A DNA stretch of 7,958 nt from a virus (Duplodnaviria; Heunggongvirae; Uroviricota; Caudoviricetes): the IMG/VR virus record IMGVR_UViG_2579778613_000007, positions 1 through 7,958 of that record; one strand, written 5' to 3'. Positions 3,282 through 7,958 of the stretch are shown here, in pieces. Position 1 is the first letter of the stretch, and each line of letters opens with the position of its first letter. A program made the position numbers and the translations under genes. The notes beneath the pieces are model-generated. The model had not been told where the DNA came from. It worked only from the letters and a program-made list of their open reading frames with translations, and did no database searches.

Positions 3282-3575
3282 ATGCCAGCGCCTCTGTATG
3301 GTGCGGATGACCCGCGCCGCTGTTCCGGCAATTCCGTATCGGAGGTGCTGGCTAAATTCAGAAAAAACTACGACCTGATAATGTCGCTACCGCAGGAAAC
3401 GAAAGAGGAAAAGGAATTTCGCCATTGTATATGGCTTGCAGAGAAAGAAGAACGCGAGCGAATTTACCAGACATCAATCCGACCATTCCGCAAAGCCACA
3501 TATACCCACTTCCCTGAAATTGACCCGCGCCTGCGTAATTACCGCTCACGCTATGGCGCTATCAGTAATGACTGA
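3282..3575 (+). CDS. Hypothetical protein (97 aa)
   Basis: ATG at 3282 preceded by AGGAG; co-oriented, 16 nt after the exonuclease stop. No recognisable domain. Confidence 0.6.
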
Positions 3576-3585
3576 GGAATTTACC

Positions 3586-3753
3586 ATGAGAGGACTTGCA
3601 TACAATCCCGGCATTCTTCAGGCAGAAATGATTATTCGCCAACGCGTAAAGCCAATGCCATCGAGAGAGGAATTGCTTAAGAGAAAGAGTTTCGGTTCTG
3701 TTAATGACAACAAATATCTGAATGCGATGTGGCGCAAAGGAGGCAACCAGTGA
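3586..3753 (+). CDS. Hypothetical small protein (55 aa)
   Basis: ATG at 3586 with GAGG 8 nt upstream. The longer ORF from 3436 in the track overlaps the previous gene in another frame and is less likely. Ends in the repeated motif AGGAGGCAACCAGTGA. Confidence 0.5.
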
Positions 3754-3804: not shown

Positions 3805-4005
3805 ATGCTGGCAAAAATGCGCGATGTTGAAGGTGGGCGTATGCGCGTTGGCAATGATCCAGGTCGTGATGTTACCAATGAGGATGCTCAATTGGTGTGG
3901 CAACTGGTCATGGCTGAAGGTGGTGAGATCGCGTGGGAGCTGGATGATGGTTCTCGCATGGTGTTGAAGGCAGAAAAACAGGAGGCAACCAGTGAACAAG
4001 ATTGA
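3805..4005 (+). CDS. Hypothetical small protein; start uncertain (ORF open from TTG at 3775, first ATG at 3805, no clear SD)
   Basis: Open frame ...MLAKMRDVEGGRMRVGNDPGRDVTNEDAQLVWQLVMAEGGEIAWELDDGSRMVLKAEKQEATSEQD. Its 3' end overlaps the start of the next gene by 14 nt. It may be the downstream part of a frameshifted gene. Confidence 0.4.
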   Translation: MLAKMRDVEGGRMRVGNDPGRDVTNEDAQLVWQLVMAEGGEIAWELDDGSRMVLKAEKQEATSEQD

Positions 4006-4486
4006 CTATCAGGCACTGCGTGAGGCGGCAGAGCGTGCAATTCAGGCAATGGAACGCCTGTTAATGTTGCCAGTTGATGATGATCTGATAAGCGAACAGG
4101 AACTTAAAGATTTCGGTGTGGATATTGATGCGCTCAACGCCTTCAAATTTCTGGCCGGACCAGAAACCGTGCTGGCACTACTTGATGAACGGGAAGCAGA
4201 CAAAAAGCGCATTGCAGAACTGGAAGCTCGGGAAATAAAACCAGCCAAAGGTGAAGTTCTTGTCGTTGTTTCTGGTTTTACTGGTTGCGGAAAAAGCGCC
4301 ATTGCCGGGGAAATAGAAATCGCGATGAAGGCTATTGGTGTACCGGTTCAGTGGACTAATGGCGATGCGGAAAAGCGCATGACAGGAGCTGACTGGCTGA
4401 CAGCGATTGAGATGTACAAACCAACTGTGCGCATCGTGGAAGTTAATGTGCCACGCGTCGCTGGAATTCGCATCAAAGGAGAGTGA
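3992..4486 (+). CDS. Ead/Ea22-like early-region protein
   Basis: GTG start with AGGAGG 6 nt upstream. The N-terminal YQALREAAERA and central TVLALLDERE motifs match what I recall of Ead/Ea22-like prophage proteins. The C-terminal part carries a Walker-A-like GFTGCGKS. Confidence 0.6.
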   Translation: MNKIDYQALREAAERAIQAMERLLMLPVDDDLISEQELKDFGVDIDALNAFKFLAGPETVLALLDEREADKKRIAELEAREIKPAKGEVLVVVSGFTGCGKSAIAGEIEIAMKAIGVPVQWTNGDAEKRMTGADWLTAIEMYKPTVRIVEVNVPRVAGIRIKGE

Positions 4487-4487
4487 T

Positions 4488-4685
4488 ATGGATAAAAACA
4501 CCACTGCCTACTGGAGTCTGTCACTTGATACCGAATGTCCCAAATGTGGTCACAATTTCGATCTGCTTTGTGATCCAGATTTCTGGGAGTTTTCTGGAGC
4601 TAAACAGGCATGTGAAGAAATAAAAGGTTACGAAACATGCTGTCCAGAATGTAACCATGAATTTAAAACAGATTTCGTGTATTGA
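4488..4685 (+). CDS. Small zinc-ribbon protein (65 aa)
   Basis: MDKNTTAYWSLSLDTECPKCGHNFDLLCDPDFWEFSGAKQACEEIKGYETCCPECNHEFKTDFVY with two Cys pairs (CPKC ... CPEC). The ATG lies 1 nt after the upstream TGA within the repeated module AAAGGAGAGTGATATG. Confidence 0.6.
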   Translation: MDKNTTAYWSLSLDTECPKCGHNFDLLCDPDFWEFSGAKQACEEIKGYETCCPECNHEFKTDFVY

Positions 4686-4695
4686 GGCATAACAA

Positions 4696-4812
4696 ATGAC
4701 CACTATTACCAAAGAATGGCTACAGAAAACGATTACCAGCATTGAGTCAGCACGGGATGAAATGCCGTTCGGACTCGATGAAGATCAAAGCAACATGCTT
4801 ACCGCAATTTAA
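4696..4812 (+). CDS. Short ORF (38 aa), possibly the N-terminal remnant of a frameshifted gene
   Basis: ATGACCACTATTACC... (MTTITKEWLQKTITSIESARDEMPFGLDEDQSNMLTAI). Its first 11 nt are identical to the start of the DUF551-like gene at 4979, and the N-terminus resembles MTTIIDKK...LNELITNIEFAAR. Confidence 0.3.
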   Translation: MTTITKEWLQKTITSIESARDEMPFGLDEDQSNMLTAI

Positions 4813-4978
4813 AATTGCACTGGCATCACTGGAAGCAAAACCAATAGGTGCTTTCCACATTGCAGAACAGCAAGTTGACGGCACAAGTGACTATCTCAAG
4901 GATGGAGAATGGCCTATTGATAATGGGATTATTGAAGTCTACACCGCGCCGCCATGCTTCAGGGTAAAGGAGAGTGAT

Positions 4979-5542
4979 ATGACCACTATAATCGATAAGA
5001 AACAGTATCCAGGCGAGCAATATCTTAATGAGCTGATCACCAACATAGAGTTTGCTGCAAGGGCACCAGTTGAAGTCGTGAGAGCAATGGCAGCAGAGCT
5101 ACAGAAGCGGCGCGAAGCTGATAGTGCCGAACCTGCAAGTAATCATGAAGAGTTGCCACTTGATTATCTCCAAGGTCAAAAAGATGGTCTTGAATGGGCT
5201 GCGCAGCTTGCAGAAGCAAATCACCCACAAACTGGCGACTGGCTTTACGATGACCCGCTGGAGCTGGCTAAAGCTATCAGAAAAGGTCCTGACATGCCCG
5301 AATTCGATGGACCAGCTCCGGTAACTCCGGATGGCTGGATAAGCTGTAGTGAGCGAATGCCAGATGATGGTCAGCACGTAATTATTTTATGTGATGGCGC
5401 ATTCGTTCTTTATGCGCAATATCGAGACAGTGAGTTTTTTGATGTTGTCCGCAATGGTGAGGAGTTCTTCGAAACGCAGAGCCGCAATGTAACCCACTGG
5501 ATGCCGCTACCGGAACCGCCGCAGGAGGCTGACAATGGCTAA
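4979..5542 (+). CDS. DUF551-like phage protein; the same frame is open upstream to 4757/4742, so an N-terminally extended form is possible
   Basis: C-terminal PDGWISCSERMPDDGQHVIIL...NVTHWMPLPEPP is the pattern I associate with DUF551. The ATG at 4979 is preceded by AAAGGAGAGTGAT, the same RBS module as at 4475-4490. Confidence 0.65.
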   Translation: MTTIIDKKQYPGEQYLNELITNIEFAARAPVEVVRAMAAELQKRREADSAEPASNHEELPLDYLQGQKDGLEWAAQLAEANHPQTGDWLYDDPLELAKAIRKGPDMPEFDGPAPVTPDGWISCSERMPDDGQHVIILCDGAFVLYAQYRDSEFFDVVRNGEEFFETQSRNVTHWMPLPEPPQEADNG

Positions 5543-5819
5543 TCTGCAACTGGCAGTGAACGGCGAATACTTCGACCAGATGAAGCGGGGCGAGAAAACG
5601 GAAGAGTATCGCCTGTGTAATGACTACTGGAATAAGCGAATTATGTTCCGGGAGTATGACCGCCTGATTATCACAAAGGGATATCCGAAGCGCGACGATT
5701 CCAGTCGCAGAATTGATGTTCCGTATGGTGGATATGAAATCAAGACAATCACACATCCGCACTTCGGCGATAAACCGGTAAAGGTGTTCGCGATAAAGGT
5801 GAATATCGGCAATGAATAA
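5535..5819 (+). CDS. ASCH/PUA-like small protein (94 aa)
   Basis: MANLQLAVNGEYFDQMKRGEKTEEYRL... The G-x-K-T-x-E-x-R signature near the N-terminus and the size fit an ASCH-type fold. AGGAGG 6 nt upstream of the ATG; overlaps the DUF551-like gene stop by 8 nt. Confidence 0.5.
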   Translation: MANLQLAVNGEYFDQMKRGEKTEEYRLCNDYWNKRIMFREYDRLIITKGYPKRDDSSRRIDVPYGGYEIKTITHPHFGDKPVKVFAIKVNIGNE

Positions 5820-6358: not shown

Positions 6359-6559
6359 ATGCAACACGAACTACAACCTGATTCACTGGTTGATTTGAAA
6401 TTCATCATGGCCGATACTGGCTTCGGTAAAACCTTCATCTACGACCGGATTAAGTCCGGCGACCTGCCAAAAGCCAAAGTTATCCACGGACGAGCAAGAT
6501 GGTTATATCGTGACCATTGTGAGTTCAAAAATAAGCTCTTAAGTCGCGCCAATGGGTAA
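6359..6559 (+). CDS. AlpA/Xis-family excisionase-like DNA-binding protein
   Basis: 66-aa ORF MQHELQPDSLVDLKFIMADTGFGKTFIYDRIKSGDLPKAKVIHGRARWLYRDHCEF... Shows the AlpA-type winged-helix pattern (I..TG.GKT.IY..I..G..P...VI.GRA.W). GGAG 9 nt upstream of the ATG. Confidence 0.8.
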   Translation: MQHELQPDSLVDLKFIMADTGFGKTFIYDRIKSGDLPKAKVIHGRARWLYRDHCEFKNKLLSRANG

Positions 6560-6609
6560 AATAGCGGGTAAAATATTTTTCACATATAAAAAATACCATT
6601 CCAATCAAT

Positions 6610-6641
6610 CCCCTGCCGCTTCAAGTAGATGTCTGCAGGGG
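6610..6641. repeat. Inverted repeat CCCCTGC - 18 nt - GCAGGGG in the ORF-free tract
   Basis: Perfect 7 bp inverted repeat, preceded by an AT-rich stretch (6572-6598). Function unknown. Confidence 0.3.
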
Positions 6642-7035
6642 ACACCAGATACCCTTCAAACGAAATCTACCTTCACCCCGTAAAAGATGGGTTTGGCAGC
6701 ACACTTGCCTTATATCTACTCATTTTTACTGCAACAGGTTGAAATCTCAGCACTGTCAGAAAGCGCTGATGACTAAACAGCCCTGGGCCGGGCGATGTAA
6801 CCATCACACAGAATCCTGATAGCGAAATATGGCGTGACTCGATACTTCACTCCGCAATGCATTCCTTGATGAATTCGCAGGACCGTGATACACGGGACAG
6901 GTCACTGAATGACGACAATGTCCTGGAAATCAGCGAACCGCGCATCTGAAGTACATTTGAGCGACTGTACCAGAACATGAATGAGGCGTTTGGATTAGGC
7001 GATTATTAGCAGGGCTAAGCATTTTACTATTATTA

Positions 7036-7079
7036 TTTTCCGGTTGAGGGATATAGAGCTATCGACAACAACCGGAAAA
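7036..7079. repeat. Inverted repeat TTTTCCGGTTG - 22 nt - CAACCGGAAAA immediately 3' of the permease gene; possible bidirectional terminator or boundary hairpin
   Basis: Perfect 11 bp inverted repeat 10 nt downstream of the permease stop (7089-7091 on the minus strand). A/T tracts lie inside the stem rather than after it, so it is not a classical intrinsic terminator. Confidence 0.35.
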
Positions 7080-7088
7080 AGTTTACGT

Positions 7089-7958
7089 CTATATTGCTGA
7101 AGGTACAGGCGTTTCCATAACTATTTGCTCGCGTTTTTTACTCAAGAAGAAAATGCCAAATAGCAACATCAGGCAGACAATACCCGAAATTGCGAAGAAA
7201 ACTGTCTGGTAGCCTGCGTGGTCAAAGAGTATCCCAGTCGGCGTTGAAAGCAGCACAATCCCAAGCGAACTGGCAATTTGAAAACCAATCAGAAAGATCG
7301 TCGACGACAGGCGCTTATCAAAATTTGCCACGCTGTATTTGAAGACGGATATGACACAAAGTGGAACCTCAATAGCATGTAACAGCTTCACTAATGAAAT
7401 AATCCAGGGGTTAACGAACAGCGCGCAGGAAAGGATACGCAACGCCATAATCACAACACCGATAAGTAATGCATTTTTTGGCCCTACCCGATTCACAAAG
7501 AAAGGAATAATCGCCATGCATAGCGCTTCGAGTACCACCTGGAATGAGTTGAGATAACCATACAGGCGCGTTCCTACATCGTGTGATTCGAATAAACCTG
7601 CATAAAAGACAGGAAAAAGTTGTTGATCAAAAATGTTATAGAAAGACCACGTCCCCACAATAAATATGACGAAAACCCAGAAGTTTCGATCCTTGAAAAC
7701 TGCGATAAAATCCTCTTTTTTTACCCCTCCCGCATCCGCCGCTACGCACTGGTGATCCTTATCTTTAAAACACATGTTGATCATCATAAATACAGCGCCA
7801 AATAGCGAGACCAACCAGAAGTTGATATGGGGACTGATACTAAAAAATATGCCGGCAAAGAACGCGCCAATAGCATAGCCAAAAGATCCCCAGGCGCGCG
7901 CTGTTCCATATTCGAAATGAAAATTTCGCGCCATTTTTTCGGTGAAGCTGTCAAGCAA
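7089..7958 (-). CDS. LacY-family oligosaccharide:H+ symporter (MFS), possibly a CscB-like sucrose permease; partial, 5' end beyond the window end
   Basis: The 289-aa C-terminal portion aligns by eye with LacY: EKMARNFHFEYGTARAWG vs EKVSRRSNFEFGRARMFG, DQQLFPVFY vs DQQFANFF, PKNALLIGVVIMALRI vs GKNALLLAGTIMSVRI, LHAIEVP vs LHMFEVP (LacY H322/E325 region). Multiple hydrophobic TM segments. AT-rich codon usage unlike the phage part. Confidence 0.9.
   Translation of the reverse strand: MLDSFTEKMARNFHFEYGTARAWGSFGYAIGAFFAGIFFSISPHINFWLVSLFGAVFMMINMCFKDKDHQCVAADAGGVKKEDFIAVFKDRNFWVFVIFIVGTWSFYNIFDQQLFPVFYAGLFESHDVGTRLYGYLNSFQVVLEALCMAIIPFFVNRVGPKNALLIGVVIMALRILSCALFVNPWIISLVKLLHAIEVPLCVISVFKYSVANFDKRLSSTIFLIGFQIASSLGIVLLSTPTGILFDHAGYQTVFFAISGIVCLMLLFGIFFLSKKREQIVMETPVPSAI

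Follow-up and report, generated by a model that had tools for sequence, protein, structure and literature searches.

The region at positions 4696-4978, in front of an intact DUF551 gene, is best explained as the decayed remnant of an accessory gene of approximately 135-140 aa, which was probably fused to the DUF551 gene by a 112-bp join and frameshifted by one extra A (probability of about 0.85). In this defective prophage, a mosaic phage gene has decayed in an ordinary way, and the locus is no regulatory device. Its components are already in public databases, and no new mechanism is involved. All positions refer to the window, i.e., the whole analysed stretch of 7,958 nucleotides.

The starting state was two coupled genes in the exo-xis (ea) region, with stop and start codons arranged as TGAtATG, as in four relatives (L001, L002, L014, and L015). 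A deletion of 112 bp, or else an out-of-register crossover of two prophages, took place at CCGCGCCGCCA, costing the small gene its C-terminal half and putting the rest in frame with DUF551. The fusion product is comprised of the leader, the middle module, the residues CFRVKESD, and the whole DUF551 protein, with the old Shine-Dalgarno (SD) sequence and ATG kept as an in-frame start inside the longer ORF. In the window lineage, one extra A at 4806/4807 threw the leader out of frame, leading to a TAA at 4810. That the deletion preceded the insertion is an order that we infer, as the 281-aa immediate ancestor was not recovered, i.e., no un-frameshifted 281-aa protein with the window leader was found among approximately 15 billion proteins.

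The original prediction offered, as one alternative, that a frameshift had split an ancestral longer gene. A frameshift did split the ORF, but the ancestral state was two coupled genes, as in those four relatives, and not one long DUF551 gene. The recent recombination that was also suggested fits the mosaic joints at the gene starts and at the linker.

Prophage setting

The window is a defective lambdoid, KplE1/CPS-53-like E. coli prophage remnant adjoining a LacY-family sugar transporter gene, which is named cscB or oligosaccharide MFS transporter in relatives. The holin gene and the Q, NinH, and RusA genes are placed on the minus strand (200-2295, with the latter three at 1128-2295). A gap of approximately 420 bp leads from Q, NinH, and RusA to the plus-strand exo-xis genes, which start with the exonuclease gene at 2717. 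Their order is 3'-5' exonuclease, anti-RecBCD, DUF7446, Ea22-like, small zinc-ribbon gene, the 4696-4978 region, DUF551, ASCH-like gene, 114-aa gene, and excisionase-like gene, the last at the position annotated torI in relatives. No repressor or replication gene was found among the window ORFs between the RusA side and the exonuclease gene, no integrase was found in the window between the excisionase-like gene and cscB, and the immunity region, the usual place of the early promoters in lambdoid prophages, is absent from the gene content of the window and appears to be deleted. A prophage remnant without integrase and immunity region is a setting where gene decay is expected.

The upstream neighbor is a 65-aa zinc-ribbon-like gene (4488-4685, plus strand), which was listed among the ORFs and called with the same 65 aa in the identical loci L021 and L022. 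The zinc-ribbon Pfam matches of its protein are weak, and all are below the cut-off. Its stop codon TGA (4683-4685) overlaps the SD sequence GAGG (4684-4687) of the ORF starting at 4696. The downstream neighbor is a 94-aa gene (5535-5819, plus strand), which overlaps the DUF551 stop and is kept in relatives as the ASCH neighbor. Its counterpart is annotated as ASCH in L002, L008, and L013, and the Pfam ASCH match of the 94-aa protein in the window is only weak (E = 0.071). No promoter-like site was detected in the scan of 4300-5700, and the terminator scan of the same interval gave one terminator-like match at 4574, within chance expectation. Rfam and tRNA scans of the whole window gave nothing.

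The intact DUF551 gene

The 187-aa DUF551 gene is intact and located at 4979-5542 on the plus strand. The PF04448 match (E = 5.5e-22, 78.9 bits against a cut-off of 22) is at the C-terminus of the product, with residues 119-182 of the 187 aa aligned to the complete profile (positions 1-68 of 68). The exact protein was found on 66 contigs and named DUF551 domain-containing protein. The ATG equivalent to 4979 is the annotated start in L001, L002, L013, and L014. The SD sequence GGAG (4969-4972, plus strand) is placed 6 nt before this ATG, and GGAGAGTGATATG also precedes the DUF551 start in L001, L002, and L014. The ribosome-binding site had been described as strong, and its SD:anti-SD pairing of -9.1 kcal/mol agrees with this, being in the top 3% of all window positions.

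The upstream gene in relatives

A comparison with orthologous loci had been recommended for finding a single longer ORF. It recovered intact fusion ORFs of 273 and 279 aa, together with two-gene relatives and native single-ORF relatives.

In the two-gene relatives, i.e., L001 (plasmid pOkiPb01698_2), L002, L014, L015, L023, and L024, an ORF of 135-140 aa precedes DUF551. Its size is 140 aa in L001, 135 aa in L014, and 137 aa in L015, L023, and L024, and in the latter three it is directly before a DUF551 protein identical to the 187 aa of the window. In L002 and L014, the only NCBI PGAP annotation of the small upstream ORF is that of a partial pseudogene. The small gene is composed of four parts, i.e., a variable leader, the linker A(R/K)IALASLEA(K/E)P, a middle module with Y(T/A)APP at its end, and the tail ...CRAAMLQGKGE*. 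Its TGA is one base ahead of the DUF551 ATG (TGAtATG), as in GGAGAGTGAtATG. This layout is typical of translational coupling.

The single-ORF relatives are WP_096245603.1 (227 aa; L012) and URC09143.1 (306 aa) of the P22-like phage vB_EcoP-611R6. They show leader, linker, middle module, ...AAML..., and DUF551, all in one native frame.

Both fusions come from other E. coli assemblies; the 273-aa fusion was found in L016, L017, L019, and L020, and the 279-aa fusion, with yet another leader, in L018. The 273-aa protein reads MTTITKERIELF...ARIALASLEAKPIG...VYTAPPCFRVKESDMTTIIDKK..., is present on 28 contigs, and was deposited as OXL65016.1 ('hypothetical protein RO13_07135'). All five fusion ORFs carry the identical junction YTAPPCFRVKESDMTTII. 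Over the 730 nt of 4813-5542, no more than 2-3 SNPs, all beside the linker, distinguish the fused alleles from the window. This points to one origin of the junction, probably followed by leader exchange at the linker. The fused segment is near-identical in all carriers, so it says nothing about selection on the fusion.

Among the 24 of 66 contigs that were read, approximately nine had two genes, approximately 13 had the same junction with an intact upstream ORF, and two had the window allele. These counts are approximate, being a grouping of similar places among the contigs with the exact 187-aa protein.

The 112-bp out-of-frame junction

The linker and the middle module (FKIALASLEAKPIGAFHIAEQQVDGTSDYLKDGEWPIDNGIIEVYTAPP) were located at 4808-4954 on the plus strand. 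Relative to 4696 they are now in the +1 frame, as is the DUF551 gene. This stretch has homologs in L002, L011, and the middle of the 140-aa gene of L001, as well as in two single-ORF DUF551 proteins, those of L012 and of phage vB_EcoP-611R6. Compared with L001 and L002, the window lacks 112 bp between ...GTCTAC(A/G)CCGC... and ...TGCCG(C/T)GC(C/T)GC(C/T)ATGCTTCAGGG, and in the alignment with both the gap endpoints are in CCGC microhomology.

Pairwise alignments placed the deletion or recombination junction at 4944-4954 (plus strand), i.e., in the 11-nt microhomology CCGCGCCGCCA. Homology from the left side reaches 4954 (blocks H84-H100), homology from the right side begins at 4944 (H27-H30), and the overlap of the two is CCGCGCCGCCA itself. 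In the left reading it encodes ACC GCG CCG CCA (TAPP, or YTAPP with the preceding residue), and in the right reading TGC CGC GCC GCC ATG (CRAAM). L008, which represents the same chromosomal locus in strain EC16, has two exact copies of the 11-mer in its intact 232-aa DUF551 gene, at a distance of 157 bp and in different reading frames, and L011 has a near-exact pair. This out-of-frame repeat pair provides the family with a natural substrate on which slipped or out-of-register recombination can act.

The missing 112 bp are not divisible by three (3 x 37 + 1), so that the join brings the middle module into the DUF551 reading frame. The C-terminal remnant of the upstream gene, ATG CTT CAG GGT AAA GGA GAG TGA (MLQGKGE*), is retained at 4954-4977 (plus strand) in the 4696 frame, and its counterpart is ...CRAAMLQGKGE* in L001, L002, L014, and L015. 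By frame arithmetic, the same bases in the DUF551 frame encode the linker CFRVKESD. The original prediction had noted that the DUF551 frame is open upstream of its ATG, and the ORF list agreed, with TTG 4742 and ATG 4757 as upstream starts, an ORF at 4742-5542, and an overlap with the 38-aa ORF in another frame. The frame is open upstream of 4979 because of the 112-bp join, through which the old tail now reads CFRVKESD.

The term "fused" was apt, as a 112-bp out-of-frame deletion joined the upstream gene to DUF551 and the intact 273- and 279-aa fusions share the junction. With two genes in L001, L002, L014, and L015, fused genes in L016-L020, and CCGCGCCGCCA at the junction, the pattern is that of fusion by microhomology-mediated deletion. 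Exact-pattern scans of genome and metagenome contig collections did not find the deletion junction, and the relatives carrying it came from an exact-protein look-up of the 187-aa DUF551 protein.

It is conceivable, although we regard it as improbable, that the CCGCGCCGCCA repeat pair is a recurrent point of fusion and fission, that the intact fusions, present on at least 28 contigs, are functional with two isoforms, and that the window allele is a recently silenced version or one that is leaky by rare +1 slippage at AUU-UAA. If so, one slip would turn two coupled genes into a single DUF551 protein that has two leaders and keeps the internal start.

The 38-aa stub and the extra A

The 38-aa stub (4696-4812, plus strand) is the N-terminal leader (MTTITKEWLQKTITSIESARDE...) of the decayed upstream gene, and it ends at a premature TAA (4810-4812). 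It matches the first 134 nt of intact genes annotated DUF551 or dATP/dGTP pyrophosphohydrolase by 93-98.5%. The same leader was found in a DUF551-containing dATP/dGTP pyrophosphohydrolase protein (L004) and in other proteins (L005 and L006), and intact homologs of the truncated leader gene were identified in L004, L006, and L012. The 38-aa product was called on three contigs.

A frameshift between 4742 and 4812 had been suspected of splitting a longer ORF. Alignments with relatives located it as a single-base insertion, i.e., one of the two A's at 4806-4807 (plus strand) is extra in comparison with the relatives inspected. The window reads GCAATTTAAA, whereas relatives read GCATTTAAA (LTAFK) or GCATTAAAA (LTALK). 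All of the same-leader relatives inspected have CTTACCGC-ATTTAAAATTGCA (L-T-A-F-K-I-A) with one A fewer, compared with CTTACCGCAATTTAAAATTGCA in the window. In the E. coli matches listed across the site, 135 query bases align to 134 record bases with a one-base gap. The extra A changes TTT AAA to (A)TT TAA, the ORF stops at 4810-4812, and the native sequence that follows is now in the +1 frame.

The extra A was also found in L021 and L022. Both are the same as the window over 4686-4981 without differences, and L022 is identical across all 5480 overlapping nt. L021 carries the window allele with different genes upstream of approximately 4006. Because these two loci carry the same allele, one of them with different upstream genes, the extra A is not a one-off assembly error. 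The lesion is reproducible, and its products are recorded from both NCBI and Logan assemblies.

This bears on the reading in which sequencing or assembly introduced the extra A by mistake and the true gene is an intact 281-aa fusion. The change is a single-base indel, the ORF is intact once it is corrected, and nearly identical fused alleles with other leaders are intact, all of which would suit an error. However, two further NCBI assemblies carry the base as well, one of them with different upstream prophage genes, and the resulting products are on record from both assembly sources. In addition, the site is a change from A to AA without a long homopolymer, and the 15-billion-protein collection does not contain the 281-aa protein that the correction would give. 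An error is thus very unlikely.

Exact-pattern scans of genome, metagenome, and viral contig collections gave no further copy of the extra-A site. Neither the extra A nor the junction was among the best-ranked matches for 5,426 complete E. coli genomes, so the comparison rests on draft assemblies. An imprecise recombination joint was also considered as the source of the extra A, and it was rejected, as the window stays of the leader-donor type (as L004) through 4819 and 4828. Any crossover with a fused allele would consequently be approximately 25 nt downstream of the insertion.

Start sites and isoforms

Nested in-frame starts could in principle give two functional isoforms, i.e., a protein of approximately 261-266 aa from 4742/4757 and the 187-aa protein from 4979, as had been proposed for this locus. 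The open frame at 4742-5542 is in line with this. An automatic gene caller called the 261-aa product of ATG 4757 on three contigs, and the fused relatives with the same C-terminal 235 residues make the long form a plausible protein. However, the upstream starts are poor. The SD:anti-SD pairing is -5.6 kcal/mol at 4696, but it is +0.2, -2.2, and -3.2 kcal/mol at 4742, 4757, and 4778, respectively, which is the background level (55% of window positions reach -2). These three in-frame starts without SD sequence sit within the 38-aa ORF, which itself has one, and the first 17-22 codons of the long form are the leader read out of frame. After the TAA at 4810, no other in-frame ATG, GTG, or TTG is present before 4979 (4813-4978). 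The proposal of long and short isoforms does not hold for the window, and two functional isoforms from it are highly improbable.

In the preferred reading, i.e., decay of a fused gene, the window would efficiently yield only the 38-aa stub and the 187-aa DUF551 protein with its own SD sequence at 4979, and 4813-4978 would be left untranslated. The long isoform is unlikely in the window. A credible upstream start is present only in fused relatives, e.g., the fusion ORF of L016 has a GAGG SD sequence 8 nt before its ATG. The long isoform is a real possibility only in these intact fused relatives, which combine an SD sequence of the long ORF with the internal in-frame SD-ATG of the former gene start. 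For annotation, 4979-5542 is correctly called as the 187-aa DUF551 gene and 4696-4978 as a pseudogene fragment, and the 261-/266-aa ORF reported by some gene callers should not be annotated.

Phage lambda S107/S105 is a known system in which nested in-frame starts produce two protein isoforms. The intact fused relatives resemble it by having a strong in-frame SD-ATG inside a longer ORF. Unlike in lambda, the internal start is the old start of a separate gene, and the long form in the window has lost its own start.

Programmed frameshifting

A programmed +1 frameshift at GCA-AUU-UAA-A (4804-4813), restoring the 281-aa fusion in the manner of prfB, is a further reading, which we consider extremely improbable. 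A +1 shift at a sense codon before a stop is formally the prfB geometry, with a sense codon ending in UU before the stop and a continuing ORF in the +1 frame, and removal of one base gives an uninterrupted 281-aa ORF. However, the extra A is rare and derived, being present on three contigs. It is absent from the inspected same-leader relatives (matches in 689 of 5,426 complete genomes) and from the fused relatives, so that beyond the allele itself no inspected relative carries the base and the site is not conserved.

The prfB-type +1 signal consists of a slippery CUU-U, a weak stop (CUU UGA C), and an SD-like stimulator approximately 3 nt upstream. In the window, the site is AUU UAA A, and the upstream AGCAACATGCTTACCGCA has no SD-like element. 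At prfB, tRNA-Leu moves from CUU to UUU, whereas tRNA-Ile(GAU) would re-pair on UUU with a mismatch in the first position. A -1 shift enters the wrong frame. The window thus differs from prfB in having no conservation, no upstream SD-like stimulator, poorer tRNA re-pairing, and a recent single-base insertion. The suggestion of programmed frameshifting found no support, as the site depends on a rare derived base, a +1 shift would be required, and none of the known signals was recognized.

Comparison with related mosaic loci

Frameshifted or incomplete pseudogene fragments, labeled as DUF551 or hypothetical, are annotated by PGAP before DUF551 genes in E. coli prophages, e.g., EC042_RS31005 (E. 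coli 042), ACSYA8_RS02210 (AH21A060), and H7R26_RS26125/26120 (WP7-S17-ESBL-01). Like the window region, they are placed between the Ea22-like and DUF551 genes of the exo-xis region, consist of the same leader and linker modules, and have a truncation or frameshift at module joints. The window allele differs from them by combining the out-of-frame 112-bp join with the extra A.

The fusions of 273 and 279 aa (L016-L020) are identical to the window in the junction YTAPP-CFRVKESD-MTTII and in the DUF551 part, but they have other leaders and no frameshift, and their long ORF is intact. URC09143.1 and WP_096245603.1 share with the window the leader, linker, middle module, DUF551 domain, and genomic neighborhood. 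However, their joins are in native frame, and they are without the internal SD-ATG or the second leader. Compared with these single-ORF mosaic proteins, which belong to functional phages and prophages, the window join is an out-of-frame accident that retained a whole second gene.

The Ea22 and DUF551 proteins of the exo-xis region have already been described as mosaic and DUF551 as a portable domain, and Ea22 variant 2 and YfdS of CPS-53 are related DUF551 cases (PMC10834534, PMC4776307).

Conserved sequences at module boundaries

The 11-mer ATGACCACTAT was reported to open both ORFs. It has exactly two copies in the window (4696 and 4979), each at an ORF start, and the minus strand of the window has no copy. 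An 11-mer pair by itself is unremarkable; 23 pairs were observed in the window, against 10 +/- 4 in Markov simulations. This pair is not a product of chance, because both copies are on start codons and ATGACCACTAT(A/T)ACC heads the equivalent genes in many relatives.

In the relatives, ATGACCACTAT(A/T)ACC heads at least three otherwise unrelated N-terminal modules, i.e., MTTITKEWLQKTITSIE..., MTTITKERLLTIKQW..., and MTTIT(D/N)KKQYPGEQYL..., behind five different upstream contexts. Homology blocks are bounded at the 11-mer, with H47 beginning at 4696 and H1 at 4978. Phage 611R6 matches the window in the upstream gene and in 16 nt at the ORF start and is divergent thereafter. L004 and L013 have the upstream gene and ATGACCACTAT as in the window and different genes after it. 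The 11-mer is a conserved cassette start, where phages swap alternative N-terminal modules.

The idea of a duplicated gene-start module is not borne out as a local duplication, since this cassette start is conserved across the family. The similarity of the two N-termini, also pointed out originally, does exist, i.e., MTTIT and MTTII followed by KEWLQKTITSIESA and EQYLNELITNIEFA (6/14 identical), but it is thin and marginal (shuffle test, p of approximately 0.025). Homology of both N-terminal regions was considered and rejected, as a BLASTP comparison of the DUF551 protein with the reconstructed upstream protein yielded no significant alignment (best E of 0.5, in an unrelated stretch). The DUF551 N-terminus was also dissimilar to four other leaders.

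The locus can serve as a worked example of N-terminal cassette exchange at conserved start and linker sequences, out-of-frame microhomology fusion, and later decay in a defective prophage. A 16-mer, AAAGGAGAGTGATATG, is present at 4475 and 4966, and the 65-aa gene begins just after the 4475 copy. Both ATGACCACTAT and AAAGGAGAGTGATATG are conserved module-boundary sequences of this mosaic region and no local duplication.

Gene content and missing regions

In positions 1128-2716, the minus strand carries the genes for Q, NinH, and RusA, and the plus-strand exo-xis genes followed within approximately 420 bp. No repressor or replication gene was found between these two gene groups in this interval. 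Therefore, the prophage seems to have lost its entire immunity and replication region by deletion, and the plus-strand genes may be without a promoter. A comparable join was found in the related locus of strain PI6 (L009), where it is annotated with pseudogene fragments.

Beside the rusA gene, an ORF of 146 aa was predicted on the plus strand (2268-2708), with a 28-nt overlap with the 5' end of the oppositely oriented rusA. The ORF had no Pfam match. Its CxxC...HH...CxxCH motifs resemble an HNH or zinc finger.

No integrase gene was found in positions 6560-7088, i.e., between the excisionase-like gene (6359-6559), which occupies the place of the gene that relatives annotate as torI, and the minus-strand transporter gene (7089-7958), which runs off the window. 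At the equivalent position, an integrase was present in two relatives (L013 and L015), and only a DUF4942 fragment was present in two others (L007 and L009).

The stretch of approximately 720 bp from the holin gene to the Q gene (404-1127) showed no convincing ORF, no tRNA in the tRNA scan, and no match in the Rfam scan. An IS3-family transposase was among the features listed under one homology match (H38), which starts at position 401 of the window.

Repeats and start annotation

The 16-mer AAAGGAGAGTGATATG was present twice in the window, at 4475-4490 and 4966-4981. Both copies are composed of a gene end (...KGE*), an SD, and the ATG that starts the following gene. Four relatives (L001, L002, L011, and L014) carry the same boundary. 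This boundary looks like a conserved linker and a site of exo-xis cassette exchange.

A second boundary-type repeat of 16 nt, AGGAGGCAACCAGTGA, was observed at 3738-3753, the end of ORF 3436-3753, and at 3980-3995, where it extends into the start codon of the Ea22-like gene (GTG at 3992).

The 13-mer CATGCTTACCGCA was observed at 1583-1595, on the plus strand of the Q gene region, and at 4794-4806 in the leader, the N-terminal module of the decayed gene upstream of the DUF551 gene. The leader copy ends where the extra A, i.e., the single-base insertion, is located. The sharing is probably due to chance.

The start of the fused allele, in which the upstream gene is joined in frame to the DUF551 gene, was annotated inconsistently across sources. 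In L016 (2243-3064) and L018 (2225-3064), the recorded gene call is the 187-aa product. An intact longer ORF with its own start extends upstream in frame, giving 273 aa in L016 and 279 aa in L018, and OXL65016.1 is the 273-aa form.
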